DNA from: Marsupella aquatica | Lineage: Eukaryota > Plantae > Marchantiophyta | DNA length: 64,000 bases | NCBI GenBank assembly: GCA_973895155.1 | Contig: OZ316891.1 | Coordinates: 8,619,875 to 8,683,874, forward strand | Direction: 5' to 3' | Shown here: positions 27,309-64,000 of the stretch, one piece after another | Layout of the letters: each line of letters starts with the position of its first letter | Position numbering within the stretch: the first letter of the stretch is position 1 | Notes under the pieces: generated by a model | The model's database searches: none | Seen by the model: the letters and a program-made list of their open reading frames with translations, nothing else | What the model was told of the DNA's origin: nothing | Made by a program: the position numbers and the translations under genes

Positions 27309-27417
27309 TGTTAGACTCTACCTTTGACCGGACGACCGGACCAGCCGGTCACCCTGGTCCTACTATATGTACTCCTATTCCCGACTGTACACATGTTCAT
27401 TCCATTCTATTCTCACA
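27309..27417 (+). repeat. 3' LTR of the Bianca-like element
   Basis: Preceded by the PPT and followed by TSD TTTTC. Confidence 0.95.
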
Positions 27418-37900: not shown

Positions 37901-38453
37901 TTTCCTCATTTTCTTGTCACAAGGTTACAAACTAGTTACCCAACACCGACCGTCCTTACCCTATATATAAGGTGATTGTGACTTTAAACCAATCCAAAAG
38001 GCTGAATAATTATAACCCTTAAACCACATTTAAGGACCAGAGTCCCTGGTGCAAACTGTGCACGTCGGGGAACGTAGGCTCTACACAATCTTGCGATCTG
38101 GCAACTCGAGCTATTCGGACATTCGCCGCAAATTCGAGCCATTCGGACATTCGCCGCATATAACAGAATATTCCTAATTCAGACGCCTTTCGTGACGTCG
38201 ATTGACAGTCCCCCTGAGATCTGACGGTCTAGACATCGACTCGTAAGTGGACCGCACATTCATTCGAACGGCGGTCACGAAAGAGGAATTGAGGACTGTG
38301 GAAATCTCTGTTGGAATTCGACGTCGAGGAATTTTGATCGTGTTCGTTCCGAACACAATTCTGCGCTGGAGCAATTCGTCGTGCTCCTTCGACCGCCGTA
38401 GCTCGGCCCTCCGAGCGATTCCTCAACCTCTCGAGAAGAGAGTCGAGAGAGCT

Positions 38454-41825: not shown

Positions 41826-43010
41826 TTATAAGGGCAGCGACGTCCTCGATGACCGAGACCGTGTCAACGTTGGCATAATTTGAGAACCACTTATTCGCCT
41901 TTCGGGTGTCTGTGATTGTGGAATCCATTCATCATCTTCTTTCAGAGCTGTTATGAGCGAACGGTGACGGCGACCATCAGATTCCGAGGGGACGGGCGTC
42001 TGTTCCCCAAATTCATCTGAATAGCCATGATCATCCGGGAAGATCGTCAACGATGTGTCAAAGGCTTCAAAACGCAATGAGAAGACTGGTGCAGGTTTGC
42101 TGCGTGGCAGTGATGGCACGGGACTGGAGCCTTTCCAGATGTTTAACACCTCCCTCATTGTTGGCCTTTGATCGGGATCAGGATGACAGCACAGAAGCCC
42201 AATTTTCAGAAACATGGTCATCTCGCCAGGATCGAATGCATTCTTTAGTCTCCAATCGACAGCCTCCAAAAGGGTATTGTCTCGGTGAAGCCTCCACACC
42301 CAATCCACAAGTAAAGGCTCGTTACATCGTTCCTTATCTACTTCGGATAGTACTGGTCTCTTGCCCGTGCCCACCTCAAGCATCATGACTCCAAAACTGT
42401 ACACATCGGTTTTCTCTGTGACTTTGAGCGTGGGGGCTATCTCCGGAGCCAAATATCCGTAAGTTCCAGCTAGAGATACTGTGCTTTGTGACCCAGCTTT
42501 GCTAATTTTAGCTAACGGTGCGAAACCGAAATCACCTAAGCGAACTTTGAAATCTCTATCGATCATGATTGCGGACGATTTCACATCTCTGTGAATGACT
42601 TGTTTCCCACATTCCCAATGCAAGTGCGCGAGGGCTGTCGCAACGCCACCCACAATCTTCAGCCGTCTTGCCCATGTCAGGACAGGCTCTCCCGAAGCAT
42701 CCGCATTCTTGAAGAGATGCTGATCCAAGCTCCCGTTGGGCATGTAGTCATAGACAAGCAGCAGTTCACCCTTTTCGTAACACCAACCCAACAATCTCAC
42801 GAGGTTGCGGTGCCGCACTTGACCAATGATCTTCACCGCTGTCAAAAGCTCTCGAGCTCCGTCCTGTGAGTCAGTAGGTATTCGTTTCACTGCTACGTCT
42901 ATTGGCCTGTCAGCTCCCTTCGGCAATAATCTACCTCTGAAAATCGATCCAAATTCAGTATCCCCCAGTACATCATCGGAGCTGAATCCATTTGTAGCTG
43001 TACTCAGAGT
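41826..43010 (-). CDS. Receptor-like kinase domain of L-type lectin RLK type; probable pseudokinase or pseudogene
   Basis: LSTATNGFS..LG, VAVKR, RHRNLVRLLGWC..KGELLLVYDYMPNGSLD, IHRDVKSS, LGDFG, GTYGYLAPE, TDVYSFG and IGLLCCHPDP..RP. Several catalytic residues are altered. No ATG or ectodomain is evident immediately upstream. Confidence 0.8.
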   Translation of the reverse strand, partial: TLSTATNGFSSDDVLGDTEFGSIFRGRLLPKGADRPIDVAVKRIPTDSQDGARELLTAVKIIGQVRHRNLVRLLGWCYEKGELLLVYDYMPNGSLDQHLFKNADASGEPVLTWARRLKIVGGVATALAHLHWECGKQVIHRDVKSSAIMIDRDFKVRLGDFGFAPLAKISKAGSQSTVSLAGTYGYLAPEIAPTLKVTEKTDVYSFGVMMLEVGTGKRPVLSEVDKERCNEPLLVDWVWRLHRDNTLLEAVDWRLKNAFDPGEMTMFLKIGLLCCHPDPDQRPTMREVLNIWKGSSPVPSLPRSKPAPVFSLRFEAFDTSLTIFPDDHGYSDEFGEQTPVPSESDGRRHRSLITALKEDDEWIPQSQTPERRISGSQIMPTLTRSRSSRTSLPL

Positions 43011-43839
43011 TAGCTGAGAGCTCGGCTGAGAGCACTCAAGGATCTACGACTAAGTCTAGGAGCTGGAGACCAGGGAGACTTCACTTAAATGACAACCACT
43101 CCCTTCCTACTGCCCATGAATGTCAAGGAATATGAAGAGTTGCACCTCACTGACCGACGTCTTCCATCTCATGATCAATCATAAAAACAAGAAACTCGTA
43201 CGAGCTTACTGACAGTCCGATCCGACTCATTATAATAATGAAATCAACAACTTTTGTCCTGCACACAAGCATCACCATATCCCTACAAAAAGGATCCAGT
43301 GACAAAAACAGACAATGGATGGGAAATCACACCTCACAGCAGCTGGGTTTATAAAATTTTCTATAAGAAATCCATACAAATCAAACCGGGTGCCAACCCC
43401 ACCACGGAATCTGGGTCTTCGAAGGAAGTGAGACATGCACATGTGCCGAGGTCTGCCCGTTGATTGAGCGCTGGAGTACCCAAGAGATTGGTTGGAGCCT
43501 GTGCATTAGCATTACCATGAGCAGGCAGCGATGAGTCCAATTCGCGTTTGCTCAGAATCAAACGAAGCTAGTCACCCAGAATCCCCAGTCAGCCCTCCAG
43601 CTGAGATTCATCAGCTATGGAATCGCAGGCCACAGAACTCAGTTACTGTGTGGACTACTGCTGCGAGCTCGACGGCTGTCATTGAGTGCAATTCATTCAA
43701 GTATGTGGCTCCAGCCGACTTATATCCATTCTTGTTGTAATCTTTGAAGCTTTATGGCAGGAGAAAAATGCACACTTTCTAAGTAAATAAGAATAAAAAT
43801 CTCTTTGGGTTTTTAAAACCATAAGTGCATCTATCATAT

Positions 43840-44135: not shown

Positions 44136-44953
44136 TTAACTCCCCACTAGGACACTAATCTCCCCTCAAAATTCAATCAATGGACAGAATTTACGCTTCT
44201 CTTGTAATTCTTGAATGCATATTACAATTTAGGGTTTAATAAATGCCATGAAAATACAAAATGAAAAATCACTCACAGCATTCAGTACTCTGTACCCGCC
44301 TCTTCAAGTGGGCATTAAGTCTAATATACTTTCACTGCCACATGTAACCCCCTCGTACGCTTTTAATGTTTCGTCTGGAGACCTTACCCATTCCCACTTG
44401 AGATCGGGCTTGAGACTGAAAGTGTCCCTCTAGTTTACTATAAATGTTTTCACTCACAAGCATATATCATCTGACCACAGAAAGAGAAATAATCATATGA
44501 GACAGAGAAACCCACACAAATTATAGAAAACAAGACGTCACTTTCATCATTGATGAGAGATATAGGGTGGTTCAGAAATCAATACATATGTGTGGAGAGG
44601 GGTCTAGTGTGGGTGGGATGGATTTAGTGGGTAATGGATGACTTTCTGGCTATCTCCTTGGCCCCTGGTTGCCCACTTTGGAGCCTTGATTAATCATATT
44701 TCCCTCTTGGTGCGGTTAGTGTTGGATCCGTGGGGGCTCACCCTGAAATGGGTTCCCAACAATGTATATGTCACTACTGGGGTGGCGAGATGAAGAATGA
44801 GTTGTGACACAACAGACATTTCCCCGTTCCTTTGCCAATCTTCAATGCCCGCACTCCAGAGAAAAGGCCCCAAGCAGTCATCCGCCAGATGAAGGTCTTA
44901 GCCCTCATTGGGAGGTCATGTTGGGTATTTACTCTTATGTCTAGGTTAGGTAT

Positions 44954-45114
44954 GACGTGGTTGGTACAACAACGTGGGTTGGTACAACAACGTGGGTTGG
45001 TACAACAACATGGTTTGGTACAACTACGTGGTTAGGTACAACTACGTGATTAGGTACAACAATGTGGTTAGGTACAACTACGTGATTAGGTACAACAATG
45101 TGATTAGGTTAACT
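44954..45114 (+). repeat. 18-bp tandem array in LTR U3 (9 units in the 5' LTR; 6 units in the 3' LTR at ~50610-50715)
   Basis: Unit ACGTG(G/A)TT(A/G)GGTACAAC(A/T). The 54-bp LTR length difference equals three units. Confidence 0.9.
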
Positions 45115-46069
45115 AAGTTGCACACTATATCATAAGAGGCACGTGTGCTTGGAGGAGTAGAACCAAGGCTCATTGTTATGGAGCCACTTGAGAGATAGGG
45201 AGAGCTTACACTGTGGAGACTCGATATAGCCGACGGGCTTAGAGTTCAGTAAAGCTCTCTTGTGTGTTCCCGTGGACGTAGCCTCAAGGAGGTGAACCAC
45301 GTATCTCTTATGTCGACTATTGTGCGTTGGATGATTCATAGGCTTGCCGTTGCGATCGTCGTCTATGCTCAACAATTGGTATCAGAGCATGCTTGGGAGG
45401 TGACGTGTGTTCGTGACGGGATTTCATGACGGTTTTTCCAGCGTTGAATGTCGGTGGATTTCCCGGAGTTCCGTCGCATGGAACTTGGAGTTTATGGGCT
45501 CAACGGATAGATCGGGGCAAGAGCTTTCTAACGGTGTGAAGAAATCGCTGAACGGAGCTCGTGGTGCGGAGAGATCTAAGTTTTTGTCATTCTGGATTTT
45601 GTGAAGAAAGTTGGCAATCGACTCGGAGGAAGAAGCGTCAAGTGTTTTGACTCAACGGAGAGATTGAGGCAAGACGATTGTTTTGAGTCCCGGATTGGCT
45701 CTTTGATGCAAAGAGGAAGGCTAAGCAAAATCAATTACCTTGTTGGACTTTGTGACGGCACCAAGTGCAATTGATCAACATTCGTTGTTGACAAGCCATT
45801 GAAGTTGGCAACACGGCGCACCAATCACATCGCAATTCCGACAACGGGTTGTACTTGGTATTTCGGTTATTCCCTGAGGTGGTCAAAACGAGGGAGTTTC
45901 CCAAGGTTTTACCCACCTAAACCGAAATTTGAATAACTTTTTCGTCAAATTTTGATTTTGATTTCGGTTTTTCAGTATTGGACTCCTAGCTTTGTGGGCT
46001 ACGCGGCGGTGTTGTTTTTCGAGTTTTTTGAGAAGTTGTGAAAAACGATATTTTTTGTGATTTTCTCAT

Positions 46070-49000
46070 ATGAGTGATTCGGAGGAGTTTTTTGAAGACG
46101 TGGAACTTGAAGCACGAGGATCACCACGGCGGTTTCAGGGGCAGAGAGAGGAGCAGAAGGAAGAGCACGTGACACCGATACCATCACCGGTGCGGCGTGT
46201 GGTGGAGGAAGCAGTACTACTACCGGAGCTCACGGTAGTGCCAAAGAAGAAGATGGGGACTTTCAAGCTTGGGGGACCCAAGTATGAAGTGACAAAGTAT
46301 GATGGGCGCTCTGACTACTTGCTATGGGAGAAGCAGGTGAAGGGAGTGCTCTATGCGTCAGGGATGGGCCAACTGCTGAGCCCTCGTGAAGACGATGTTG
46401 ATGAGAAACAATGGGACCGCATGCAGGAGCAGGAAGTGTGGTGTGTTACACTCTATCTCATGCCTCCCATCATCAAGCAGTTGGGTGCACATAAGGATTG
46501 CATGTCCTTGTTTGCGGAATTGCAGAGCAAGTATCACCGCAAGGAGTTGTCGAACCAGCTCTACACTTCCTACAAACTGATGAGTTTCAGGATGAAGGAA
46601 TCCGGTACGAAGTTGCAAGACCATGTGGATGCTTTCAACGACATGGTCGTTGACTTGGAAAACCTTGGGGAGACTTTGAATGATGAGACGAAGGCTCTGC
46701 AGCTTCTTAGTTCATTGCCTCCATCTTACCAGTCCCTATCACGAGTGTTGTTGCATCGTGATAGGGATACCATTTCATACAATGACGTGGTAAGTTCTCT
46801 GCTTAGTGATGATCTTCAGCAGAAGATGCACATCACGTCACAGCCTTCATCATCTGGTGCTGCCCTCAATGTTAACCGTGGGAGGAGTATGCAGCGACCA
46901 ACTGGGGACCGTAGAACCCAGTTTAGATCTAAATCCAGATCTAAGTCCAAGGGTAAATCCCCTTAGAGGAGGCAGGTGACATGTTGGAAGTGCAACCAAG
47001 TTGGACACTTCAAGCGAGACTGTAAGGGAAAGGCAGCAGAAACTTCATCGGCAAATATGGCTAGGGCTGATGGAGAAGCTGATTTACTCAATGATGAGTA
47101 TGTTTTATGAAGCCGGGGGTATGCCCTATGCACGTCATCTAGGAGAGCAGATGATGTGTGGATTCTTGATTGTGCTTGCTTTTTTCATATTTGTTACATT
47201 CGTGAGTTTTTCAGTTCTTACTCTGTTTCAAACGGTTCAGTTCTGATGGGAAATGATCACTCCTGTCAAATTGAGGGAATTGGGTCTGTGAAGATTCAAA
47301 TGTTTGATGGCGCTGTGCGCACAGTGTCTGGAGTCAGGTATGTACCTGGCATGCGTAAGAATCTGATTTCACTCGGTGTGTTGGATTCAAATGGTCATCA
47401 ATGGAGCATTATTGATGGTGAACTTCAAGTCAGGTCGAGAGAGACAGTGATTTTGAAGGGGAGCAGACAAAAGAATTTGTATGTGTTACAGGGCAATACT
47501 GTATGTGGAGAGGCCAATGTAACCAAGTCTCATGAGGAGATGACTCAACTGTGGCATTCACGGCTAGGCCACATGAGTGAGAAGGGTTTGGCTATCTTAC
47601 GGAAGAATGGACTCATTTCTGATTTGCAATCTTCTAAATTAGAGTTCTGTAAGCATTGCATTCTTGGAAAGCAGCATCGTCGTGCTTTTGGTGTTGGAAC
47701 TCATCATTCCAAAGCGGTTCTTGAGTACATACATAGTGACGTGTGGGGTCCATCCCCGACTCTCTCACACTCTGGAAAGTTGTACTATGTATCATTTATT
47801 GATGATTACTCAAGATTTGTGTGGATTTATTTCATGACGCATAAGTCTGATGTCTTGTCCATTTTTAAGAAGTGGAAGGCCCAGGTGGAGAATCAGACTG
47901 GAAACACGATCAAGTGTTTGGATACAAGGGTGAAGAGTCTGAGGTCAGACAACGGCGGGGAGTACACTTCAATGGAATTTGAAGAGTACTGTTCAGAACA
48001 GGGGATAACTCGCCATCTTACCATAGTTTATACTCCGCAGCAGAATGGTGTCGCTGAGAGGCTCAATCGGACGCTGTTGGAGCGGTCACGGAGTATGTTG
48101 AGCCAATCAGGTTTACCACAAGAATTTTGGGCAGAAGCTGTCAATACCGCAGCTTATTTGGTAAATCTTTCTCCTTCTAGTGCTATCAATTTCAAAACGC
48201 CGTTTGAGATGCGCTATAAGCGGTAAGCAGACTATCATGGCTTGGTAGTTTTTGGAAGTGATGCATATGCTCTCACACCGAAGCAGAATAGGACCAAGTT
48301 GGATCCTACCTCCAAGAAATGTGTTTTTCTTGGGTACCAGAGTGGTGTGAAAGCCTATAGGCTATGGGATCCTATTGCCTGTAAGCTCGTTGTCAGTAGG
48401 GATGTTTCCTTCAATGAATCCAGATTATTGACGGAGGGGGAGAATACTCAGGTCTCCCATACTGACAAAGGAAAATCTCATATCCCGGATCTCGTTGAGG
48501 GGGAGATTGGTTATGAGGTGCATGACCAGAGAGAAGAAGTTGCTCCAATTATGGAGCTGGTTCCTGTGCCAGAGGAACCGGAGGAGTTTGTTGATGCTGG
48601 TGAGCAGCAAGTGGATGCTGTTGAGCTTCAAATTATACCAGCACACGCAAATCAATCGGAGTCATCGGCTAGAAGAACATCTGGTCGCACTGTACGTGCT
48701 CCACCAAGGTATGGACAGTGGGTTGATTCATCTCAACTGCAAGAGAATGATTTTGCAGCTGATGATGAGGGTGATGCGTTAATTTTGGAAGAAGGGGAAC
48801 CTTCTTCATTTCATAAGGCAAGTGCTTCAAAGGAGAAGCAGAAGTGGACTGCAGCAATGCAAACGGAGATGCAGTCACTAAAGGACAACAAAACTTGGGA
48901 GCTTGTTAAGCTGCCTAAGGGTCAGCAAGTGGTGGACAGCAAGTGGATTTACAAGCTGAAAGATAATTCCATGGGAGGTGGATCGAAGGTCTACAAGGCT

Positions 49001-50382
49001 AGGTTGGTAGCAAAGGGATTCACACAAGAGAAAGGTGTGGATTACAATGAGGTCTTCTCACCAGTTGCTAAGTACTCTACAATATGACTATTGTGTGTAC
49101 TTGTTGTAATGTTTGGTCTGCTGCTAGATCAGATGGATGTTGTCACAGCTTTCCTCTATGGCACATTGGAAGAGGTGATCTTCATGAGACAACCGCTAGG
49201 TTTTGTGAAGAGAGGACAGGAGGAATTGGTTTGCAGATTGCTGGAATCCTTGTATGGGTTGAAACAGTCACCAAGACAGTGGAACAAGCGGTTTGACGAT
49301 TGGATTCGGTCACAAGGTTTTCACAGAAGTGTATTTGACCCTTGTGTGTATTTGAAACCTGTGAAGAATGTTGTCTTTGGGTTCATTATTTAGTACTTTA
49401 TGTGGATGACATGCTAATTGCAACCAAGGATAGGTCTGAGATTGTTAAGCTCAAGGCACTGCTTAGTGCAGAGTTTAAGATGAAGGACTTTGGGCCAGCT
49501 AAGAGGATTTTGGGTATGGAGATCACTAGGGACTTGGAGGCTGGTAAGCTATGGTTGACACAAAGTAGTTATGCGAGGAAGGTAATTGCTAGGTTCAACA
49601 TGAGAGATAGCAAGCCAGTAAGTATCCCTTTGGCTGCACACTTCAAATTGTCATCAGCTTTCTGTCCCACAGATGTGATGGAGAAGGGGCTGATGTCAAA
49701 GGTTCCTTATGATAAGGCAGTGGGAAGTCTCATGTATTTGATGACTTGCACTAGACCTGATCTTGCTATGGCTATGGGCAAGGTAAGCAGGTACATGTCG
49801 AATCCAGGGAAGGTACACTGGGAAGCAGTGAAGTGGATTATCAGGTACTTGAAGGGTACCATGGATCATGGTCTTTTATTTGATGCGAATGCAAAGAATG
49901 CTAGATCATTGATTGGCTATGTAGATTCTGACTATGGACAAGATTTGGACCGAAGGAGATCAACAACAGGATACGTGTTCACACTTGGCGGTGGACGCAT
50001 AAGTTGGAGGTCTACTTTGCAGAAGTGTATTGCTCAGTCTACTACAGAAGCGGAGTATGTTGCAGCTGCGGAAGCAGCAAAGGAAGTGATTTGGTTGGAT
50101 AGACTTATCACTAAAATGGGATTGCCACAGGGGAATGTGAAGCTTCATTGTGATAGTCAAAGTGCGCTCCACCTTGCTGTGAACCAGGTGATGGACAGTA
50201 GAGTGAAGCACATTGACGTCAGGTACCATTTTATCAGGCAGGCTGTGTCTGATAATTTGTTTGAGCTAGTCAAGATTGATGGTAAACTCAACCCGGCTGA
50301 CGCATTTACCAAAGTGATTCCTTTGGAGAGTTTCTCTAGACACCGTGACGTATTGCAGGTTTTGCAATTGCATCACAAGTAG
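46070..50382 (+). pseudogene. Copia gag-pol with premature stops and a frameshift
   Basis: gag LLSSLPPSY, CWKCNQVGHFKRDC knuckle, protease WILDCAC, integrase WHSRLGH/HSDVWGP/RSDNGGEY/QNGVAER, RT YKARLVAKG/LYGLKQSPRQW/LYVDD, RNase H YVDSD/CDSQSA/KHIDVRYHF. Stops at 46964, 47107, 48224 and 49085. Confidence 0.93.
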
Positions 50383-52233
50383 AGTTTTTCTTAACATTCA
50401 TTGTAATTACTGATATATGCTCTTCCTCATTCCTATATATTAGGCTACGGCTTAGTTCTGGTTTGCTCTAGTTAGAGAGGGAAACCGGTTTCGTTTTTGT
50501 CCAGAACTTCCCGCTGAGGGATCATATACATTGGCAGTATTACTCTCCCCTAGACCAGAGTCAAGGGGAAGATTGTTGGGTATTTACTCTTACGTCTAGG
50601 TTAGGTATGACGTGGTTGGTACAACAACGTGGGTTGGTACAACAACATGGTTTGGTACAACTACGTGGTTAGGTACAACTACGTGATTAGGTACAATAAT
50701 GTGATTAGGTTAACTAAGTTGCACACTATATCATAAGAGGCACGTGTGCTTGGAGGAGTAGAACCAAGGCTCATTGTTATGGAGCCACTTGAGAGATAGG
50801 GAGAGCTTACACTGTGGAGACTCGGTATAGCCGACGGGCTTAGAGTTCAGTAAAGCTCTCTTGTGTGTTCCCGTGGACGTAGCCTCAAGGAGGTGAACCA
50901 CATATCTCTTGTGTCGACTATTGTGCGTTGGATGATTCATGGGCTTGCCGTTGCGATCGTCGTCTATGCTCAACAGGTCAAGTGTCCGCATGTTAAGCCA
51001 AAGCTTACTCCACTCTCTTTCAGTTCGTGAGCCTCCCCAAATCCTATTGAGTCTACTGGTCTCCGATCCTTGCAGTCTAAGGAGCTGATAAACTCTCTGA
51101 TTGTCTAGTCTGAATTCTCTCATCCTTTCCTTAGACACCCTAACCCAACGCCAGAACTCTGGTTTAGTTTCAATACCAGTATGAGAGTGTCTAGCAGAAC
51201 AGATAGTGCCGACCAGTTGTCTGCAAAGATCCTGAAGCGAGTTGTCAATACCCCTGTCAATACCCCAAACTCTATCAAGTCTTTCCATCACAGAAAATCC
51301 AACATCCTTCCTACCCTGACCAGAGTGCATCCACCCTTTTGATTCCAATTCTACAACAGATCTCCGCCAAAGAGTTAAGATGGCCTTCAAATAAGGATTG
51401 GAATCCCTTCAAACATTTGATCAGGTCACACATTCCCAGTGACCAAGGATAATTCCGTTCTTCAGGAAAAATGTCAAGTACAACCGTAAATCTGCCCAGG
51501 ACTTCCACAAGCTCCCTGTGTAGCGCAGCAAGCCAAACTTCAAAGGCGAGCACAGCAAAATGCGGTCTCTCATTGAGCGGGTCATTGAGTACCCATTCCT
51601 GAAAATATACCCTTGTAATAATGCCACTTTGCCAATCAGAGATTCTCACCAAACAATCGTGCGCATTCTAAGTCGGGGCAGTCCAGAGCCTTGGTCAACC
51701 ATTTGCTCAACAGCGCGTTAGAGTGCCCCTGAAACTCCTTGAATCCCAATCCCCACATAACCTTAGGTTTGGTTAAAGTAGCTCAGGCGACTAGCCAAAC
51801 CTTCCTGCCCCTAAATGGATTATACCCCCATAGAAAGCTCCAGCATAGAGCAATCATCTTCCTAGCCAATTTGGCAGACAATTTGAAAAGCATCATATGG
51901 TAAATCAGAATGGCCTGTAGTACATGTTATGTCTCCTGAAAGCGGGTTAATTAACGCCTCTCCGAGTGCGATACCTCCCCTTGAGGCCTGGACAGGCGCA
52001 AGCTGTGTCCAGGATTTCTCCAAGTCCGGAGCCCTGTGGTAGTCTATGCTCTTGACGAGTCTATCGAAGCAACATGTACAAAAGGGCCAGAAGTGTGCTA
52101 AAGAGCCAAGGCATTCAAGTGGCTTTGCACACCTTTCACAATCTCTAGGTTCATAAGACTTCAGCCTTTCCTTTGAATAGACTCACCATATTCTTGGTTT
52201 CTTGTCTTGACCATTGTGTCAAATAACAGTAAC

Positions 52234-52526
52234 TGTTGGGGATAATCCCTATCCCGAGACACCATGCACATGAGAACACCATACAAAGTAGTCGACACAG
52301 CGAGTACGTGGTTCACCTCATGACCGAGGCTACATTCACGGGAAAGCAAGAGACCTTTACTTCTCTCTTGCTCAACTCCAACAATGAACTGAAGATCCAC
52401 CAGGGACTGGCACCAGCCCTGGCTATATACACAACAACACTACCGCTAACCTTAGCTAAGTCCTAACCTGAGTTAGCCTAACTATGGTTAGCTCAAGAGT
52501 CACAAGACTAAGAGCAATACCTAATA
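52234..52526 (-). mobile_element. Solo LTR related to the LTRs of the 44.9-51.0 kb Copia element
   Basis: Flanked by TSD GTAAC (52229-52233 and 52527-52531). TAGTCGACA...TACGTGGTTCACCTC...GAGGCTAC.T.CACGGGAA is shared with the reverse complement of the Copia LTR. Confidence 0.88.
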
Positions 52527-53059
52527 GTAACAATTAGCTCTCTATAAGACAATGCACGTTCCCAGGAGATAAATCCAGTGCACACTTAGCTAGGGTTTTG
52601 ACTACGTCATAAGTGCAAAAAACTTTGAACATGTATTGATAAGAGCACACACAATGATGACTCATGAGCTATAGTGCCTTGTATGCGATGAGCTCTCTTT
52701 CAGTTGACAATCTCATGACTTCCTTCCTAAATTGTACATGCCTACCTCACAAGTGCCACTTTCACTCTATGTACAGATGACTTGCACTTATCAATAAGTG
52801 TTAGTCAAATTAATTGTGTGCATAGTTGTCGTGACATATAGTATCGTAGCCATAGTGTATCGAAAACATACAAGTCACCGGCAATGCATATGTGCAAGCT
52901 GCTAGCAACCAACATCCTTAGAAAAAGTCCAATCACATTCACAAGTGCCAAGAAAAAGCAACTGAGGTGGTATGTACGTAGTGGAGGTGTAAACCTCTGT
53001 ATCCCCCCCAGACCACAGCTAAAAGGAGGGTTGAAGAAAAGTCAGGTAGCACGTGGAGC

Positions 53060-53203
53060 ACAGGAAGGGCAAAACCATAACCCTTCTGGCACCTGGGTAA
53101 GTTCAGGCTGAAGGCAGAAAATATGGTACCCTCCATTGCAATTATCACATAGCAGCATCTGGTCAGCATCATCAATTCGCAAACACACTTTGCAAGGGTA
53201 GTC
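53060..53203 (-). other. PHD finger at the integrase C-terminus
   Basis: DYPCKVCLRIDDADQMLLCDNCNGGYHIFCLQPELTQVPEGLWFCPSC has C4HC3 spacing. Confidence 0.93.
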
Positions 53204-56200
53204 CACAGGTGGAATCCAAGTAGAAGTCACAATGGTGGGATCCAGGTTAGGCAGATGACAAGGGGCGCAATTCTTGGCATTGTCAGCAATTGTGCGCCCA
53301 TCTGCCCCTTGTAACTCTAGCACTCCAGACGGTCGAATAGCTTTAACCCTGAGAATAGTACGACTGGTAGAGGTGTCCAGGGTGTCGTTAGCTTGCCGTT
53401 GCAAGTACACAAAATCTCCTACATCAAACTTCCTGACCTTGGGCTGAAAAGTGCCCCCTCGTGTGTGTGCATAACGCAGTGTGTCCCTATGCTGTGCAAT
53501 GGCCAAATTCTCCATGGCCATGGGCATAACCCTCCTGAATAGGGCAGCCCTCTCAGAGATCACATCAGACCAAGTCACAGCTGAATCCAAGTCCACCACC
53601 TGAAGCATGTGAGCAGCAATAGTAGAAGGTGGAACTGGGTGACGACCAAACAACAAGAAGTAGGGAGAAAAGTTAGACAGTGATGCATGTCTGGACATCC
53701 TATACCCCATGGCAATGTAGGGTAAGGCCAGGTCCCAATCCTCCTTATTTTTGGTGAGGCAGATCTTCCGGAGACCCTTCTTGCATGTCTGAACCATGCG
53801 CTCTGCCAAGCCATCTGCTTGTGGTTGATCTCGTGACGTTCGGCGATGATCAATGAGGGCCTGATCAAGCAGCTCCTGGAACTCTCCTCTGAACTCTGAT
53901 CCCTGGTCAGTGAGACATTCTGCACAAGCTCCAAAGCGGCTGAGAACTTGTTGTAGGAATGCCTGGCTGGTGCTACGGGAGGTCTTATCCGGCAATGCCA
54001 CAAGTTCTATCCACTTGGAGAAATGCTCTATCATGATCATGATGTAGAGATTACCCCGAGACGTGAGGGGTAATTCTCCAGCCAAATCACATGACCAGCG
54101 ATATAACATGCCCTGAATAGGGAGTGGATGAAGTGTGGGTTGCCGAGATGTGAAAGAAGTCCTCACCCTATCACATTGTTCACACCGGGCAATAACATCT
54201 TGAACCTGGTCATGCATGCCTCTCCAATGATAATGAGGGACCAAGAGGCTGTAAGTCCTCTTAACGCCAAAATGACCAAGCTCAGAATGTACCTTACGGA
54301 TAAGGCCAACCCTCTCATGAATGGGTGGAACCACCACTTCCCTGTCTGGCAAGCAGCGCACGAGATGATCTCCCTTCCACAAGTAACGCTTGGACCTTTG
54401 CTGAATTCGGTCTCTCTGGGTTGCAGTAACATGTATGGGGTACTCCCCATGCTGCAAAAATCTCAGAGTGTCGCTGTCCTCCCATATGTCCACCACAGGT
54501 TGGTCAACGATGTAGCATGGCAGCAAAGCAAGAGAGGTAGATGCATGAAATGTAGGCAGGATGGAAACCTGGTCAAAATCCTGCCGTGCATCTGAGGGAT
54601 CATCAGAGGCAATCAAAGGGCTGCGGGACATAGTGTCAGCATTTTGATGTGTCACACCAGGCCTATGAATTACCTCAAAATCATACTCCTGGAGTATGAG
54701 TGCCCAACGAGCAAGCTTGCCAGTAAGCTTGTCGTTGGTCATCAACCACTTCAAGGGCTGGTGGTCGGTGTAGAGAACAAACCCGGTCCCATAGAGGTAG
54801 GGCCTGTAATGTATTACAGCCCACACAACAACAAGGCATTCACCCTCATAAGAAGAATAATGACTCTCTGCCTGATTGTTGTTCCTGGATGCATAGGCAA
54901 TGACGTACTCTTTACCTTCCTCATCATGCTGGCCCAGAATGGCACCAATCCCAAGGGCACTCCAATCTGTGTGTAGCACAAAGACCTTGCTGAAATCAGG
55001 TCTTCTCAGCACCGGGTATTCTGAGAGCTTCTCCTTCAAAGTGGCAAATGCTGCCTCAGCATCTGTACTCCATGTCCAAGTCACATTCTTTTTCAACAAA
55101 GCATACAATGGGTGTGCAATGGTGCTAAAATCTTTGATGTAGATCCGGTAGTAATTGCACAACCCAATAAAACTCCTCAAAGTGTGAACATCGGTAGGAG
55201 TGGGCATTTCCAAGATGGATACCACCTTGGCCCAGTGAGCCATGGTTCCATTTGGAAGAATGCGGTGCCCAAGGTATACTACTGATCTGACAGCAAATTC
55301 ACACTTCTTGGGGTGTATCTTTAGGTTCACCTTCTTAAGCCTCATGAATAGCTCCTCAAGGTCAAGTAGATGCTGGTCAAATCCTTTGCTGTGGACCAAC
55401 ACATCATCAATGTAGCATTTCAGAAACTGAGCACCTTGAAGAACCTGGTCCATGACTCTTTGAAAGAATATGGGCGCATTCTTCAAGCCAAATGGCATCA
55501 CCAACCACTTCCATAGTTGGTTACTGCCATGGAAAGCTGTTTTCTTGCGATCCTTTGCAAGCAGCAAAATCTGGTTAAAGCCTTGCCTTAGATCCACAAG
55601 AGTGAAGATGTCTGAGTCTCCAATGCTGTCAAATAGCTCCTCTGGCCGTGGCATGGGGTACCTGTCCTGGGGTGTGACCAGGTTCAGTGGCCTGTAGTCC
55701 CCACACATGCACTTCTCTGTCCACAATCCATTGGAATCCTTCTTTGCTGGCATCACTGTAGCTGCTGCAAAATCTGATGTAGATGGCTGAATAAGACCAG
55801 CTTCATAGAGCTCTTGGCACCTCTCATCCACCAGCTGCCACTCATGCTTACTCAAACGGTGTCTCCGCCTGAAGATAGGTGTTTCATCAGCCAACTCAAT
55901 GGAGAACTGCATAGTCTTGCACGGGGTCTTGCACTTACCCAAGTCCTTCATAGAGAAAGCAAACACATTCTCATGCTTGAGGAGAAAATTCAGCAGCTGG
56001 TCCTTCTGTCTTTTACTCAAGTGGTTGCCCATGATGAATGTGTAATTGGCAACACTAGGAATAGGACCTGATGTACTCGTGCTTGAAGAACCAGCAGTGC
56101 TAGCCTCTCCACTATCCAAGCTGCTAGCATGCTGCTGATAAGGTGATGAGGCCTCTCCAAGGCCTGTTGTACCTGCTGATCTGGGTTGGTCCACACCATG

Positions 56201-56379
56201 AAACTCAGAAATATTGTCAGCCACGTTACAAGGGACCTCCTCCCCCCCAACACTTGGATTGAAGCGGTGAGTGTTGAATAGAGGTAAGTGCACCTGGTCT
56301 GGATGCCATGTAGCAGCACCATGGAGTGGTAGAACTGGAACTCCTGATGCTGGAGGAATGGACATCTGAAAAAGGATGC

Positions 56380-57330
56380 AAGTGACCAGAAGCCAAGTGA
56401 GAGCATTAAGATCCATTACCCTGTCAAGTAAAGCATTCCTAGCCAGCCTGGTGGTTTTGGTGTGGCCCGTAGTACCGGGTTGGAAGCCCATAGCCCGTTC
56501 TCTCTCCTCAGGACTAGGTTCATCCCCTGTACTGGTAGAATGTCGATAAACCAGGCCAGGACCATCACCCTGAAAAGCATGTGCACCTGGAAATGATACA
56601 AATGTAGGCCAAGCAGCACGGGGCTCTCCAATGGTATTGGCTGGATACCAAGGTGCTGGCTCTTGTTGGGTAACTGGTTGGCAAGAACTGTCAGGATCCA
56701 AAATCTGGTCCACTGTGAGGTTAGTGTCCCTGGATGTGTGGTGAAGAGCTAACTCCAACAAGGAATGTGGTGCAAGGTTAGTCCAAAAGTTATGAAGACA
56801 ATGTGCATAAGAGCCACAGTGCACTGCATCAATGAGAAGGGGTGGCCCCAAGTAGTGCTGGACCACACTAAAATCCTCTTTGACCTGTGGACGCTGGTCA
56901 AACTGAGATGGAGTATTCTCAATGATATAACCAATAGCAGGATAAAGGGATTGAGCCTAGGTGAGAATCTGAACCAATGCTGTGAAAAGGCCAGAACGAG
57001 AATCATGCAGTCCAGCATCGTGACCAGCAGCTGAAAACCCTTGGCATTCCCAACCAGCTATGATCAAATCAAGGGAGCCAAGAAGGGTTAAGTGTCGGTG
57101 CTGGACAAGCTGGATATCTGGAGGAAAGAAAGAAAATGCAGACTTCCAGGCACTGTGTGGAAACTGCTGAGGGAATCGCTCTGAAAATTCCAGCAGACGG
57201 GATTCAGCCACTTGCCTTGCACTTGGATCAATGTCCACATAGATGTACTGCTTCACCACCATGCCGGACTTTAGGAGAGCTTCCAGGCCTGTAGAAATGC
57301 CACCAAAAAGCTCAAGCAATGTAAGGCCAT
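56380..57330 (-). other. C5 cytosine DNA methyltransferase domain (DNMT3-like) within pol
   Basis: Motif I LLELFGGISTG, II YVDID, III DIQ, IV LDLIIAGWECQGFS, V SRSGLF, VI YIIENT (read across the stop), VIII GSYAHCLHNFWTNL, IX ERERAMGF and X ARNALLDRVMD, all in canonical order. Confidence 0.88.
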
Positions 57331-58269
57331 CTGGAGCTGGAGTCCATGTAACTGGTGCGCTCAAGATTGGGGCTATTGGCTGTCGATTGTGCTGCCCAAG
57401 GTCTTCAAACTTGCGCAATGCAGCCACCAAAGGTCCATGGGCTGCTTGGAGCCGTTGTACCACCTCTGGTTGATGATCCATGTTACTGGAAAGTGCTGCT
57501 ATATGTGCAGTAGCCACCTCATTGTCATCCTCTTCAATCCAATCCTGCAATGGATGGTTGACATAGGTAGCTGTGTGCACTTCTTGCAGCACACAGTGGT
57601 GAGCCATAGGGGTATGGGCACCATGCAAATCAAGTGGAATGTAGCCCAAGTGTGAGCCATCCGTATGCCAATCAACTCTATAGTATGCATGCTCATGCCA
57701 GTTGTCAATGGTAAAACCTGGTGGGAACAAAGCCTCCTGGCCAATGAGCACATCATATGTAGTGGCATTGGTAACCAAACATCTGATTGGAAAATGCAGT
57801 TCCTGATCTGTACCTCCATTAAAAGTGAGAGTGAGTAAAGTAGAACTCAAACATCTGACTGGGAAATGCAGTTCCTGATCTGTACCTCCATTAAAAGTGA
57901 GAGTGAGTAAAGTAGAACTCTCACCCAGCACATCCTCCACAGTGCCACTAGCAGTCCGAATGTGCCACCTAGATTGCTGTAAATGATCAGTCAACAGTCC
58001 CATCTTCTTGGCAAACTGAATGCCCAAGATTACTGGTTGAGCGCCTGTATCTAGCATGACCACCTGAGGAGTGTGACCCTCCAACTTGACTGCTGAATTC
58101 CTGTTGTCAACAATGGCAATGGTGGTGGAAACTAAAGTCCTGTCACTAGGCACCACTTTTGGCAAATGATGAGGTACCTTGTGAAGGGAGTTAGTGTCCA
58201 CGGTCTTCCCACTCAACAGCATAGCCAGGAAAGATGGAGCAGCATGACCAGAATCAAGTGTAGCTCTGG

Positions 58270-60552
58270 TCACACAATCTGCAGCAATACTGTCATCTCT
58301 ACCGCCAAACCAGTGGAAGCATGTAATGGAGAAGAAGAAGGTCCAGTATGTACATGAGATTGGACCTCCAAAACCGGTGGCACAGGGGCTGATGAAGAAT
58401 GCAGTGACCCCTCTAGCGCTCTCATGACAGCTCTAGCATCCAGCTGTAAATCATGGCAATTGAAAAGTGGAGTGGTAAGAATCCTTTGTGCCATATCGGA
58501 GGTGAAATGCCCAAGCAGCTCAGGAGAAACAACTCCCTGTGAAATGTCAGCAGCACTTGGTGGTGGAATGGATGTAGCTGCAGCTCCCTCCCCCCTCGCC
58601 AACAAGGTGTGTTCTTCAACAAGTGTGAGTGGCTGAAAAGATTGGGGCATGACAGCCCAATCGCCCCTGGCTCTAGTCATAGGACCGGCAGCAAGACCAT
58701 CAACCTGGACAATGCGACGTGTGGGAGCAATACGGGAGGCAGCACTGGCCTGCTGGTAAGCAAAATAGGATGGGTAGAATGAATCTGAAAATTCTGTTGT
58801 AAGGCCAGGCTGGGTAGCAGAGGACAGCACACACTCACCCATATGAGCATCAAATGGCAAACCATAGAAAGAGCGAGGTAGAGGTGCTGAATTGTCAATG
58901 GTGCCTGGGCCAGAGATGGGTTGCATGTGACCAGCTGGTTGAGAAGGACCAGTAGAGGCAGTTGACTTGCCTTTGATGTTGGCAAGTTGGGCACGTAAGG
59001 ACTCAACTTCATGAGTCAAAGATTGGAGTTGAGTTGCCTGTGCGTTGTGAGCCTCCTTCTGAGCTGGTTGCTTCTATTGCTGCTTGGGTAATTTGTTGGC
59101 CCCAGGTGCTTTGCCACTGGAAGGAGGAGCAACTGAGGCAATAGGAGCCCTCCTAGCTGGTGGGGGAGTGGAAGCAGGAGCAGGATGAGGGGTCTGCTGT
59201 CGTAGCTGCTTCCTCTCTGGGAATTTGGCAAAACAAACTGCCTCCAAGTGGCCCACTTTCCCGCAAAAATCACAAGACAGGTCCTCAACAACAATATCAC
59301 ATTCATTAGCCTTGTGATTGGGGTTACCACAGTAGTTGCAAGATGGCAGCATGAAAGCAACATGTGCTGGCTTGGTCTTGGAAGCATACGGTGGCACACG
59401 GGAAGGAGTGGCCAGTGTAGGGGCAGCAGCCTGGTACCTGGATCGCGGTGGACGCGCAATACTGGCCTCATAATGTGCATGGACCAACTCAAGTTTCTCA
59501 GCAGTGTCATAGACATTGAGCAGGGTGTAGCTGTCTCCAAACTCTGAGAATACTTGCTGCAACACTTGCGAATGGAGAGCTGGTGTGCCCTCCAATGCGC
59601 GAAGATACCGATGAGCAGCTTCCAGGTCAGTGATGCTCTGGGTGTCCTCCTTCATCTTGAGAAGCCGGCGATACATCATCTTCAATGTTTCATTGCGCTG
59701 CCTCACAAAGGTGGCCAACTGCATGATTTTATCAGCACTCTTGATTGGGAATTCCAATTCAAGAACCTGGAAAAACTCAGCCACTGGATCAGCAAAGGCA
59801 GGAGAATCAATGGTGGGAGAAATGCCTGATGTAGCCTATTCCAAGACAGTGGGAGTAACTGGTGCAGTGGTGGGAACTGGAGTAGGAGGGGAAGTGGCAA
59901 GCGCAGTAGCATGGGCTGCAATGGCATTTTGTAATGCCAGTTGTGAGGCAGCCGCAATTGCAGTGGCATAGGCAGGGTTAGGCAATTGTGTGACAGCAAG
60001 CAGCCGTTGAGAGTGCTGCTCATACACATCCAAAGCCTTGTGGTGCACATACCTGGCTAGCTGCTTAAATGCAAAAACATTTGTGAAATTGCTGCCATAC
60101 TTCAATTCCAATTCGTAAACAACAGCGTAGAAAGTGGATTTGAACTCACGCAAAGAAACAGTGCCTGGCCGCCCGCTGAAGCGGTCAATGCGGCCAGATG
60201 AGTGGCTGGCGTCCATGCTGTATGTCGGTGAAGCAGGAACAACCACGGATGCAGAAGGGGTAAATGGCAATGAAGTGATAGCAGGCTTGGGAGTAGTGGT
60301 GAAGCGACCGCCAAATGGAGCAGAAGGATTGCGTGGTGTGGGTGCTGCTGCTATATGTGGACGTCGTCGAAATTGCCGAGACTCCAATGAAATTGGCACC
60401 AATGGTCGTGGATCACTCCATAAATAGTACCTGGGTGTCGGTGGCGATGTGTTGCTACCTCCTGGCTCGTCTGCTGACATACTGTGTTGCAATACCCGAT
60501 ATACTGAAAACGTGTAAAATGTGTAAACACCAGGAAAAACCGTCACCGTCAA
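58270..60552 (-). pseudogene. gag-like ORF with two CCHC-type zinc knuckles, interrupted by two in-frame TAG codons
   Basis: ORFs 59836-60552, 59074-59784 and 58270-59019 share one frame. Motifs RIDRFSG, FVRQRNETLKMMYRRL, CNYCGNPNHKANEC and CDFCGKVGHLEAVC. Confidence 0.82.
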
Positions 60553-60919
60553 AAAACCGTCGGGGAAAAAGGACCGTTAAAACCTCAAATTTAGCCCCCT
60601 TCGCGTTTGCCTATGTATATGCCGAATTGACCGTCCGGTGTGTATATACCGGGCCGTATGCAGACGACCTGACGTCGGCGACAGCAAAGGAATATGAGGA
60701 AAATGGGCCCCCTGAAGTGTATACCTCGGGCCCCCTATGTGGACCCAAAAACGGAAGGACTGGCCGGCCCCAATGCCCTATGCTGTCATCCCGCGCGTGG
60801 TGAATGAGCGAGAACGGCCGAAAATGAAAAGAAAAGGGCCCGAATTAAGTGTATACACTTCGGACACTCGGCGAAGGGAAAGAAATGGCGGATGCAGGGG
60901 CCCCTCTTAATGGCACGAG

Positions 60920-61250
60920 CCCTGCATAGGGCTTCGCGCCCCCTCCTTATGAGCTCCCGAAAAGGGGTTACGAACTCCCCCCTCCTCTCCTTTAATGCTG
61001 CCTCGCTTCCCCTCCCCTCCTTCAGGCTGAAAATGGGCTCCGTGCCCTGCAGGAGACTCCTGAGGGAAGGAGTCGTATGTACTCCCCCCCTCCATTTAAT
61101 GTAGCACATAGGGCCTCGTGCCCACTGCCTCGGCTCTGTCTCCCCCTGCTTTAATGCTGTTTCGTGTGCTGCAGGAGGACTCCCGAGAAGGGAGTCGAAT
61201 GCACTCCCCTCCCCCTCTGCTTTAAAGTTGCCTAGGGCCTCGTGCCCTCT
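60920..61250. repeat. About three ~110-125-bp diverged repeats with small hairpins in the 5' region of the DNMT element
   Basis: GACTCC-N-GGAGTC(G) at ~61055 and ~61179, with a variant at ~60951. CCCC..TTTAA.G and TAGGGCCTCGTGCCC recur. Confidence 0.7.
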
Positions 61251-63213
61251 CCTGGTGCTCCTTCCCCTTCCTCTGGCTGCTTAGAAATGGGCGAGGCAAG
61301 GGCACGATGCCCTATAAACAGCCTGCACACCAAAGCGGAGGAGGTCGAGAAAAAGAGAAGAAAACGGGGCCTTCAAAGGCGAAAACGTAAAGAGGAGGCC
61401 GGGGTGGAAGCGTGTCGAAACCAGGGCACACGGCCCTATGCAGGCGTCTTGCTGCGGCCGAGGCAAACTCGCCGGCAGCTGTGGCCGGGAATGCAAAAAC
61501 GGCCCCCAAAAGCAGTCGAGGCAGCAAGCGGCAGCAAGCAGCAGTGACAGTAAGAAGAAGCAAAGGGGTCGCGGATGCAACCAGAAAATGAACTCCAGAC
61601 CTCCTCGGGAGCATTGTATACACTTAAGTATACACATAACAACATAAACCCATAACTTTCATTCCGTCGCTCCAATGTTCGTCAAAGAAATTGCAATGGC
61701 TTCACCCAAAAATTGTCGAAATCGTCACGAGCAATCTTCTTCTCCTCACCGCTAACTCGGGAGTTCTTCTTGAATAAAAGGCGTGATAGAAACAAACGTA
61801 CTGAAATCGAATCGAAAACTGGCGAGATGCCAAGATCGGCCGGGAGCATCTAACGAATCACTGTGTGAATTCCGTGTACGGAACCGACGAGCAGCCTCTG
61901 AAAAACTCTGTCTCACAGCGATTCAAGAAGAACTAAAAAATGGCAAAGAAAAACATGCCCTAAGTAGGACCGGGTCCAGGCGTCACACTAACAAACACCT
62001 TTGCTTCAAGAACGGCCCAGACTCGCTACAAGAACATGACATTAACTCAAGTAGTACACTAGCCCTAACTATATACTAGCAGACATGCGAGGGACATGCC
62101 GATGTGCACAAGAGGCACTGTCCCTCGGCATGACATAGTACCCATAAGTACTCAGAAAACCTTTATGGACGGATTGCACTTATTATCTGAACCAGGTTCG
62201 ATCAGTTGATTTGACGGGGGCCTGAAATTCGCCCCACAAAGTATTGTCCAAAACTTTATTGTAAAAAATGGCCCTGTAACTTATTTGAAATTGTATTGTT
62301 AGTACCGCATATTTTGACCCCATATGTTTTGGTTTTGGGCCTTAATACATAATTGTTTTTAGTGCAGCCCTCTTTGCATTGACAAAAACTGCAAAAAGGA
62401 GCCACATGGTTGGGAGCTTGGGGGGGTGGGGTGGGGGAAGAACAGGATGCTTTGCAATTAGCCAGGTTTTGCACTTATGGACTGTGCACTTATTAAGAGC
62501 TGACTGTACAAAGGGAGGGGGACAGTCTTTCCTTTCAGTGCACCTCAGAACTCAGCCGCACCTAAGTTACAGATTCAGGGTTAATCCCATACAGTCAGTG
62601 CAAGTCTGGGACTGACTTGAAAAAATTAAGCAACAACAGGAGGCAGCATTGCCTTGGCCCATGAGGCAGGGGTTAAGGCCTAGTAACCTCCATCTCAATA
62701 ACATGTCCCTTTTCCTTCCCTGCTCTCACCCCAATGCAGCAGGTACGTAGCATCAGCAGCAGCATTAATTCAGCAGAATCAGCAGTCTTGGTTTCTTTTT
62801 GTTGTTTCAAATATTAGCAAGACTGAGACAACTAACCATATTTGGTCAGTTGGCCAGGGGTTGATCCTAGAACAGAGAGGTCCCAGGTTCAAATCCCCCT
62901 CCACATGCAAGGGTTTGTGGAGGGTACTAGTGTGTGTGTGTGTGTGGAGAGTAGTGGTGGGAGTCCTGGTTTCTCTTAAACCACCACTATCCACCAGGTT
63001 CTGGGAAGACAAAAAAGTGCACTTTATTATTTTCTTGAGAATATTATTCACTCATATTAGTAACCTGGATACACGGGTTTTTGCTTAGTGGATAGTGGCC
63101 TTTAAGCCCCTGGCTAGTCTGCTTTGGGGCCCTGGTTCAACCTCTCTCCCTCCTGGTATCCCCGTTGGATCCTTGGGTATGACCCCTTGTGGCTACCCTA
63201 CAGAGGTGCATGC

Positions 63214-63355
63214 TCCCAAGTTGATAGTCTATCCTTGGATGGGTCCCTTTAGGTTTCAAGGGACCAAAAAATGAGTACCAAAAAGTTCCCAAGTTGATAG
63301 TCTATCCTATGTTGGATGGGCCCCCTTTAGGTTCCGAGGGACCAAAAAATGAGTA
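63214..63355. repeat. ~70-bp tandem duplication
   Basis: TCCCAAGTTGATAGTCTATCCT...TTGGATGGG...TTTAGGTT...AGGGACCAAAAAATGAGTA occurs twice. Confidence 0.85.
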
Positions 63356-63359
63356 GAAA

Positions 63360-64000
63360 AAAACTGGAGAGTCATTCGTTCCACTAGAATCGCCATTTTC
63401 TGGGTTTCTTTTCCTTGTCTTGAACATTGACCTCAGAACAGTACAAAGAGAGGGGAAGGGCGTTTCTCTTCACTAGAATCACGACTTTCACGGTTTCGTT
63501 TTCTTGTGCTGAACATTCGATCACAGAGAAGAACAGTACGTAGCGACTGGGAGAGTCTTTCATTTTTCAGTAGTAGAATTCCCACTTTCTGGGTTCCTTT
63601 TCCTGTCTTCAACATTTGACCGCAAAGTACCAAGCGACTGGGAAAGTCTTTCTGTTTTCAGTAGTAGAATTCCCACTTTCTGGGTTCGTTTTCCTTGTCT
63701 TGAACATTTGACCGCAAAGCAGAAACAGTGCAAAGAGAGGGGGCGAGCGTGTTCCTTTGAGTAGAATCACCACTCTTAGTTTCCTTTTCTTGTCGTGAAC
63801 ATTCGATCACAAAGAAGAACAGTACCAAGAGACGGGGAGAGCCTTTCCTTGCAGTAGAATTGTCACTTTCTGGGTTTCTTTTCTTCGTCTTGAACAATTG
63901 ACCGCAAAGCAATTGACGACATCCAAATTAGTACAAAGAGAGGGGGGATTGCGTTTCTCTTCAGTAAAAGCACTGCTTTCTTGGTTTCTTGTCTTGAGCA
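63360..64000. repeat. Satellite-like tandem array (~85-105-bp diverged units) running off the window end
   Basis: AGTAGAAT...ACTTTCTGGGTT...TTTCCTTGTCTTGAACATT.GACCGCAAAG...AGTAC recurs about seven times. Confidence 0.85.

Follow-up and report, generated by a model that had tools for sequence, protein, structure and literature searches.

A DNMT3-like methyltransferase domain in the Gag-Pol frame of an abundant Gypsy-type retroelement family with permuted terminal repeats, represented by a decayed copy in the liverwort Marsupella aquatica

A 64,000-nucleotide stretch of the genome of the liverwort Marsupella aquatica (assembly GCA_973895155.1, contig OZ316891.1, positions 8,619,875 to 8,683,874 of the forward strand), referred to as a whole as the window, raises the question of what a cytosine methyltransferase is doing within the pol frame of a Gypsy-type retroelement. 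A first-pass annotation had placed the element at 53042..58273, limits that proved too small; the element spans 52827-62135 on the minus strand, which that annotation had left unstated, and is flanked on both sides by a 4-bp target-site duplication (TSD). We consider it probable that this element is a decayed copy of an abundant Gypsy-type family which carries a selected DNMT3-like domain in Gag-Pol, likely primes its own reverse transcription, likely integrates by cutting at a palindrome within its long terminal repeat (LTR), and whose methyltransferase (DNMT) would methylate the element's own new DNA. All positions within the element given below are on the minus strand.

The frame running from 58432 to 53045 is open except for a single TAG at 56959-56957, and along it are arranged an aspartyl protease (PR), a C5 cytosine methyltransferase, a reverse transcriptase (RT), an RNase H (RH), an integrase (INT) and a PHD finger; Pfam profiles matched the protease upstream of the DNMT and RVT_1, RT_RNaseH, Integrase_H2C2, rve and PHD downstream of it. 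The ordered set of C5-methyltransferase motifs that the first-pass annotation had read in frame with protease and RT-RH-INT was recovered in full, all eight lying in order: ELFGG at 57313, YVDID at 57241, AGWECQGFS at 57058, SRSGLF at 57001, IIENT at 56926, AHCLHNFWTNL at 56806, ERERAMGF at 56506 and RNALLDR at 56440. The domain itself, delimited by profile, fold and alignment at 56372-57346, matched PF00145 above the profile cut-off (E value 1.6e-7; 31.5 bits against 22), a check that had been proposed with the annotation, and is unpermuted, without introns and inside the Pol frame. In a single-sequence search of solved structures DNMT3A came top (E 5.6e-5), and a profile of 50 family sequences matched DNMT3A with an E value of 1.6e-27, compared with 1e-14 to 3e-11 for DRM and 1e-10 for HhaI, the prokaryotic comparison being confined to solved structures. 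The predicted fold of the domain (pLDDT 96) gave a top Foldseek match with an E value of 1e-16 and a TM of 0.72, and the Foldseek rows listed were DNMT3A/B/C throughout; the ESM Atlas returned PF00145 again and nothing further. Among viral contigs (4 of 64 parts scanned) only distant C5-methyltransferases were found, with 25-41% identity over short stretches. The earlier description of the domain as DNMT3-like and non-permuted is thus borne out, DNMT3A/B coming first by sequence profile as well as by fold, and by profile and predicted fold the domain is closer to DNMT3 than it is to DRM, to DNMT2 or to the C5-methyltransferases of bacteria. The catalytic domains of DNMT3A/3B share motifs I-X in order with it; they differ in that identity is about 20%, that the element domain has neither PWWP nor ADD and sits in a polyprotein, and that motif IV of the element family reads ECQ or PCQ.

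Whether the domain belongs to a family or to this copy alone was addressed by a metagenome scan with protein P0001, which covered 23 of the 64 parts of the collection. Of 635 matches 621 were confirmed, and the best 80 loci (L001-L080) collapsed to 66 distinct copies, best matched by Sphagnum proteins at up to 88-89% identity. The DNMT region was covered by 68-78 of the best 80 loci, at the same place in the element, in agreement with the proposal of a land-plant Gypsy-type family with its own DNMT and at odds with the alternative that other copies lack the domain. Selection was gauged from the ratio of non-synonymous to synonymous changes per site (pN/pS), with C>T and G>A excluded and a change treated as shared if present in at least 5 of the 66 copies. 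In the DNMT region pN/pS was 0.12 for shared changes (32 synonymous, 12 non-synonymous) and 1.12 for private ones (Fisher p 1e-11), so that a ratio near 1, which the first-pass annotation had named as the mark of a domain free of constraint, was not what the shared changes gave. Shared changes elsewhere gave 0.09 in RT, 0.12 in INT and 0.65 in the linker, and private changes gave values of about 1 across regions (0.70 in the PHD region). The low ratio among shared changes indicates that the DNMT was conserved while the family replicated, and on this evidence the domain appears to be a selected feature of the family. Two further comparisons were less usable: between the window copy and a relative, pS in the DNMT was 0.745 and pN 0.23, synonymous sites being saturated and giving no usable dN/dS, and when dead copies are compared in pairs and pooled, decay raises the values (0.38-0.46). 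In the other 49 rows of alignment A1, where the residue is present, the catalytic C is kept in 47/47 and the catalytic E in 48/49, and the two arginines of motif VIII in 45/47 and 45/46.

The spread of the domain goes beyond these 66 copies, the family being present in peat mosses and green algae as well. A library clustered at 50% identity held 676 relatives at E<=1e-10, and among 162 of these (mostly the best 150 of the 676) 11 had the DNMT joined to the protease, to RT or to both (PR-DNMT and/or DNMT-RT), 52 had the domain alone, and 99 showed a second architecture in which it follows RT/RH or directly precedes the integrase. The PHD finger goes with the DNMT in both architectures. Named hosts of the first are Klebsormidium nitens, Closterium, Marchantia polymorpha, Calypogeia and Sphagnum; for the second (RT-RH-DNMT-INT-PHD) Scenedesmus was the sole named host among 10 clusters looked up. 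P0084 and P0329 (both Scenedesmus) and P0005-P0008 have this second order, which is the commoner form among the top relatives. A DNMT tree (62 rows) and an RT-RH tree (39 rows), both midpoint-rooted and built from a subset of proteins, each split the two architectures, with support of 95 and 100, respectively. The K. nitens element and the window copy fall on the same side of the 95-support DNMT branch, in a tree without outgroup and with no K. nitens RT to set beside it. The annotated M. polymorpha gene MARPO_0020s0163 (P0349), which is unnamed in the literature searched, is a gag-protease-DNMT remnant of such an element; the DNMT of the Marchantia element is 36% identical to that of the window. 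RT-RH of the window (55795-54668) is 85% identical to that of the Sphagnum-type family (P0001 and L001-L080), above the 71% of the host inositol monophosphatase gene described below, a closeness that could reflect ancient lineage sorting or a transfer between leafy liverwort and peat moss, synonymous sites being saturated.

The window copy is dead. The first-pass annotation was right that a single TAG interrupts the pol frame, and the copy has further lesions in motif VIII, motif X, protease and gag. Within the DNMT, apart from the TAG, the two motif-VIII arginines are changed to C (56800-56798) and H (56794-56792) and a motif-X G to D (56425-56423), and with these lesions the domain would be unable to methylate. 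The protease (57650-58090, by Pfam and self-comparison; DTG at 58057-58040) contains a 72-bp tandem duplication at 57776-57919, and gag (58312-60480, by Pfam and frame check; zinc knuckle at about 59343-59296) is interrupted by two stops and, near 58300, by a frameshift. In relatives gag and protease form one frame, in 34 of the 46 copies spanning the junction, and it is also open in P0002 and P0012. Sister contigs were compared in runs X1, X2 and X4, which also carry the unique flanks of the window and may share its species or sample of origin. The window differs from nearly all of the depth over the TAG site and from all of it over the two motif-VIII Arg codons, and the stop and the Arg changes are therefore private to the window copy; the motif-X position was absent from the sister rows compared. 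Differences between the window copy and the sister contigs are skewed to C>T/G>A in the window copy. Depth in the runs was 1e4-1e5 over the element and 1e1-1e2 over the flanks, which shows abundance, not copy number. Run X20 contains a diverged relative of the element.

The termini of the element, which the first-pass annotation did not mention, are less ordinary than its coding region, and comprise permuted repeats, a TSD and a predicted self-priming site. Self-comparison of the 64-kb window revealed no LTR pair flanking the element, because its two terminal repeats, A and B, each occur once there. Repeat A (61774-62135, 362 bp) starts TGTCA and would be the downstream half of a permuted LTR (the rest of U3, R and U5), and repeat B (52827-53002, 176 bp) ends ...CACGACA and would be the upstream half. 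Their limits are set by sister-contig joints 53002->61774 and 62135->52827, which show B|A and A|B junctions. The window copy thus has the layout A-coding-B, bordered by ACTA on the element strand at 62136-62139 (5' copy) and 52823-52826 (3' copy), as found by comparison within the window and with the TSDs of relatives. Of the 36 distinct relatives whose 3' end is complete, 21 are A-coding-B-A-B, 14 are A-coding-B and one is A-coding-B-A. In 18 relatives with both ends the TSD was exact over 4 bp in 10 and matched at at least three of four positions in 16 (shuffled means 0.7 and 2.0).

Signals for reverse transcription lie beside these repeats. The 12 nt directly after A (61762-61773), which lack the TGG start of a tRNA site, are exactly complementary to a 12-mer within A (61923-61934) located ~30 nt past a TATA-like box, and these are the predicted primer-binding site (PBS) and what are predicted to be the first 12 nt of the transcript; none of 1248 other leader or untranslated-region 12-mers matched A in this way. 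In relatives the self-primer comes after a TATAAAA box, and pairing of at least 10/12 was found in 29 of 31. Two double changes distinguish the window from the peat-moss-type family here, and the pairing is maintained through both, the A repeats of the liverwort and moss families otherwise giving no blastn match. A polypurine-tract-like G run (53003-53014) adjoins the start of B in the window and in the alignment of relatives' ends. The B|A junction forms a palindrome, GACA-NN-TGTC (GACA-GC-TGTC in the window), whose spacer measures 2 nt in all but two of 22 matches; the A|B junction varies, in host-type runs too.

To the anatomy, family spread, selection and cis-signals observed for this element family, the following route may be fitted. 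Since the polypurine tract lies next to B and the primer site next to A, B-A can be read as the LTR, and in its true form it would consist of B, 2 bp and A. Transcription would start within A, ~30 nt past the TATA box. As in Tf1, minus-strand synthesis would be primed by pairing of the transcript's first 12 nt with the site that follows A. Plus-strand synthesis would be primed by the G run before B, and the product would be a linear cDNA of the form BA-coding-BA. The ends of this cDNA would lack TG...CA, the sole TG...CA signal being the internal B|A palindrome, and staggered cuts after CA on both strands would produce two ordinary integrase ends and the 4-bp duplication. Cutting of an end-joined 2-LTR circle would give A-coding-B-A-B, the sole form with R at both ends, and cutting of a 1-LTR circle, or of both palindromes of the linear DNA, would give A-coding-B, the form in the window and a dead end. 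The ragged A|B junction and the permuted ends suggest that circles cut within the LTR integrate. The protease would free the DNMT inside the particle, where it would methylate the cDNA, or else the newly inserted copy, with CG as the most likely target in view of the related dinoflagellate enzymes, so that new copies would arrive pre-marked; guidance of the complex to chromatin would fall to the PHD finger. By analogy, methylation of the element's own cDNA is the most likely role of the DNMT; the dinoflagellate SymbioDIRS-Dnmt3 domains methylate CG de novo in yeast, and own-cDNA methylation was proposed for them (PMC5890265). A broader version of this proposal is put forward tentatively, as rather less than probable: that an ancient DNMT3+PHD Gypsy group spans the green lineage, that it self-primes, that its integrase passes over the ends of the cDNA in favour of the LTR palindrome, which it cuts, that only host-joined 2-LTR circles are fertile, that its own DNMT marks the nuclear circle before insertion, and that the DNMT has occupied two positions in Pol since the chlorophyte-streptophyte split.

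A different reading of the termini is a split-repeat route like that of DIRS/PAT elements, in which the transcript runs from the first A to the last B, the internal B-A rebuilds the ends, a linear A...B cDNA integrates, and A-coding-B arises later by B x B recombination. Its layout is that of the split-direct-repeat tyrosine recombinase (YR) elements (PMC5890265), and a solo A-B inserted into the 3' end of another copy at L024:14043-14500 (reverse), where it is bordered by a separate 4-bp duplication (ACCA), implies that recombination acts on the A/B repeats. Such a route would leave unexplained why the polypurine tract adjoins the internal B and the primer site the end of A, an arrangement that makes B-A the LTR. 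It also sits poorly with the junctions: A2|B2 was exact in 8/21 copies against 18/20 for A1|PBS (p 0.0009), in counts taken by eye with anchors set by family motifs and with two of the 21 A2|B2 rows (L012 and L077) possibly being one insertion, so that A2|B2 is ragged and A1|PBS and PPT|B1 (PPT, polypurine tract) are not. Nor were A-coding-B copies more decayed than A-coding-B-A-B copies (14 and 21 copies; p 0.47 and 0.30), although this test is weak. We regard the split-repeat route as rather unlikely. Several observations nevertheless weigh against priming and integration as we propose them, or against other parts of that proposal, including the recombination and the limits on the junction counts just given. 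A-coding-B can also be obtained by B x B recombination. For the first B of a copy, the copy's own second B was the best match in only 5/21 cases, and its own A was so in 6/10, which gives weak support to the repeats having been regenerated together. None of the best 80 loci held an intact full-length copy, each being riddled with stops; the DNMT and RT-RH trees have no outgroup; and motif IV reads ECQ instead of PCQ in 26 of 47 relatives.

The proposed target of the DNMT can be questioned on similar grounds. KnitGypsy-Dnmt3, the Klebsormidium element discussed below, had no activity in yeast, a result its authors called inconclusive (PMC5890265). The deamination footprint in the copies (CHG 0.25-0.30, CG 0.23, CHH 0.04-0.16) fits host CG/CHG/CHH methylation and is no test of self-methylation. 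The ratio of observed to expected CpG (CpG o/e) was 0.24 in the element, two Copia elements nearby having 0.46 and 0.81, and in a second comparison it was 0.33 against 0.20-0.52 in three control pieces, with age uncontrolled; CpG depletion was set aside as a sign of self-methylation, as it does not separate host from self methylation. Non-CG decay in the pol alignment of L001-L080 was 0.164 at CTH against 0.058 at CAH and 0.039 at CCH, a bias that may mean that CHH methylation favours CT in the moss host. One may then suppose that the selected DNMT, jointly with the PHD finger, has as its target the chromatin of the host around or at the insertion site, or that it is a weak enzyme or a module for binding DNA or RNA, a reading we hold to be rather unlikely. 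The presence of the PHD finger in both architectures, the host-like mutation contexts and the inactivity of the Klebsormidium domain in yeast (PMC5890265) speak for it, and the retention of catalytic residues across 50%-identity clusters argues instead for catalysis. In retrotransposons Pol parts are packaged with the cDNA, as the DNMT, being part of Pol, would be, and the related dinoflagellate domains do methylate CG de novo (PMC5890265). It is very improbable that a conserved leaky stop after the DNMT yields an abundant Gag-PR-DNMT protein. Distant proteins do end 54-228 residues past motif IX (Klebsormidium P0157, Closterium P0118, Marchantia P0349, and P0041 and P0045), and a stop of this kind may hold in other clades; against it, the window frame is open from DNMT to PHD, P0001, P0012, P0054, P0315, P0342, P0148 and P0354 continue from DNMT into RT, and among the 66 copies the sole linker codon with at least 30% stops is a CAG-type deamination hot spot (12/26), like the hot spots in DNMT and RT. 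That the domain is a one-off capture of a host DNMT3 piece, or a neutral passenger, might be thought from the broken DNMT of the window copy; this is refuted by family spread, selection and matching trees, given the same position across liverwort, moss and algal elements, the shared-change pN/pS of 0.12, and DNMT and RT trees that split the two architectures alike.

Parts of the element and of the route proposed here have counterparts in known systems. The element is of the KnitGypsy-Dnmt3 kind, already described in 2018 in the streptophyte alga Klebsormidium nitens by de Mendoza et al. (PMC5890265), with which it shares an intronless unpermuted Dnmt3-like domain in Gypsy Pol, purifying selection and DIRS-like A-coding-B-A-B repeats (PMC5890265). 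The features of that kind were found here: the Gypsy order PR-RT-RH-INT, a DDE integrase and, in the family, A-coding-B-A-B, and catalytic conservation and purifying selection are seen in the family, not in the window copy. The K. nitens protein GAQ93235.1 has the order gag-PR-DNMT and 34% identity to the window DNMT domain. The differences are the land-plant host, the abundance of the family and the extent of the lineage, which also includes Sphagnum, Marchantia, Closterium and chlorophytes with the other order; the 2018 account took the DNMT as an acquisition in the K. nitens lineage, and its available portions note the DIRS-like repeats without explaining them and give no TSD, priming or integration mechanism (PMC5890265). 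Tf1/Sushi and the plant Tcn1 chromoviruses have the Gypsy order, and Tf1 self-primes its reverse transcription (PMC4600332); as in these, the predicted primer site pairs with the transcript 5' end and not with a tRNA (PMC4600332, PMC6317226). Unlike them the element has a PHD finger, a DNMT and termini within the LTR in place of two full TG...CA LTRs, and its Pfam scan gave no chromodomain (Chromo) match, PHD following the integrase instead. SymbioDIRS-Dnmt3 and the split-direct-repeat YR elements resemble it in repeat layout and, in the former, in a Dnmt3 in Pol (PMC5890265), and these and DIRS/PAT differ in that the element has a DDE (rve) integrase, TG...CA ends, a 4-bp TSD and no tyrosine recombinase. 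Foamy-virus integrase cleaves the palindrome of the 2-LTR circle junction, opening the circle into processed ends (PMC1180852); there the palindrome is the end-to-end junction. In the present family its place would be internal to the LTR, and the integrated form would be permuted as a result.

The remaining parts of the element are a long, GC- and CpG-rich leader (60481-61761, CpG o/e 0.81), which varies between sister copies as seen from lower depth and joint 60457->61468 in run contigs; the RT (55238-55795, by Pfam and motif; YIDD at 55414), preceded by a DNMT-RT stretch with no stop here and none conserved in relatives; RNase H (54668-55075, by Pfam); the DDE integrase (53633-54325, by Pfam and alignment), with an H2C2 zinc finger and D, D and E intact; and the C-terminal PHD finger (53042-53194; PF00628, E 2.5e-11), ending in a TGA stop. 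Next to the 3' end of the element lies a high-copy LTR-like repeat (52234-52820) weakly similar to a Copia LTR, and beyond it, on the minus strand at 51000-52200, are degenerate fragments that by eye are presumably from a non-LTR (L1-type) ORF2. A Copia element at 44919-50975 (+) has LTR cores 96% identical, its LTR contains tandem units of 18 nt, and its primer site is of the tRNA type (TGGTATCAGAGC); a second, broken Copia at 21073-27425 (+) has 117-nt repeats 97% identical. Host genes in the window are a glutathione S-transferase-like gene (28607-30903), an intronless inositol monophosphatase (38247-39305; 83% identity to Calypogeia fissa, 70% to Marchantia paleacea and 71% to Sphagnum) and an intronless protein kinase gene (41826-43043); the identities of the monophosphatase make a leafy-liverwort host likely. 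Tandem arrays and inverted repeats occur at 8763-9814, 63214-63999, 6461-10426 and 15663-20322, with array units of 22 nt, 125 nt and ~95/190 nt, and two inverted-repeat pairs of ~70 nt, 3.8 and 4.5 kb apart, are possibly DNA transposons.

What this analysis adds to the KnitGypsy-Dnmt3 kind is its occurrence in liverworts, Sphagnum and Closterium, as well as a form from chlorophytes in which RNase H and integrase have the DNMT between them. The literature searched held no account of such elements in liverworts, mosses or chlorophytes, nor of their priming or integration route, although Repbase, the main supplement of PMC5890265 and subscription papers may hold some; a 2026 preprint, in the portion available, mentions only 'streptophytes (Gypsy-DNMT3)' (bioRxiv 10.64898/2026.05.21.726589). 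Open reading frames of this type inflate counts of host DNMT3, and the permuted-LTR layout escapes finders that need two TG...CA LTRs, as in the REXdb survey. The role of transposon-encoded cytosine methyltransferases has been an open question since 2018, and a high-copy liverwort and peat-moss family, together with the Marchantia polymorpha remnant MARPO_0020s0163, makes it testable in land plants. If circles cut within the LTR are indeed the substrate, a DDE integrase would be using an integration route of another kind, and this would explain the DIRS-like repeats of the Klebsormidium element.

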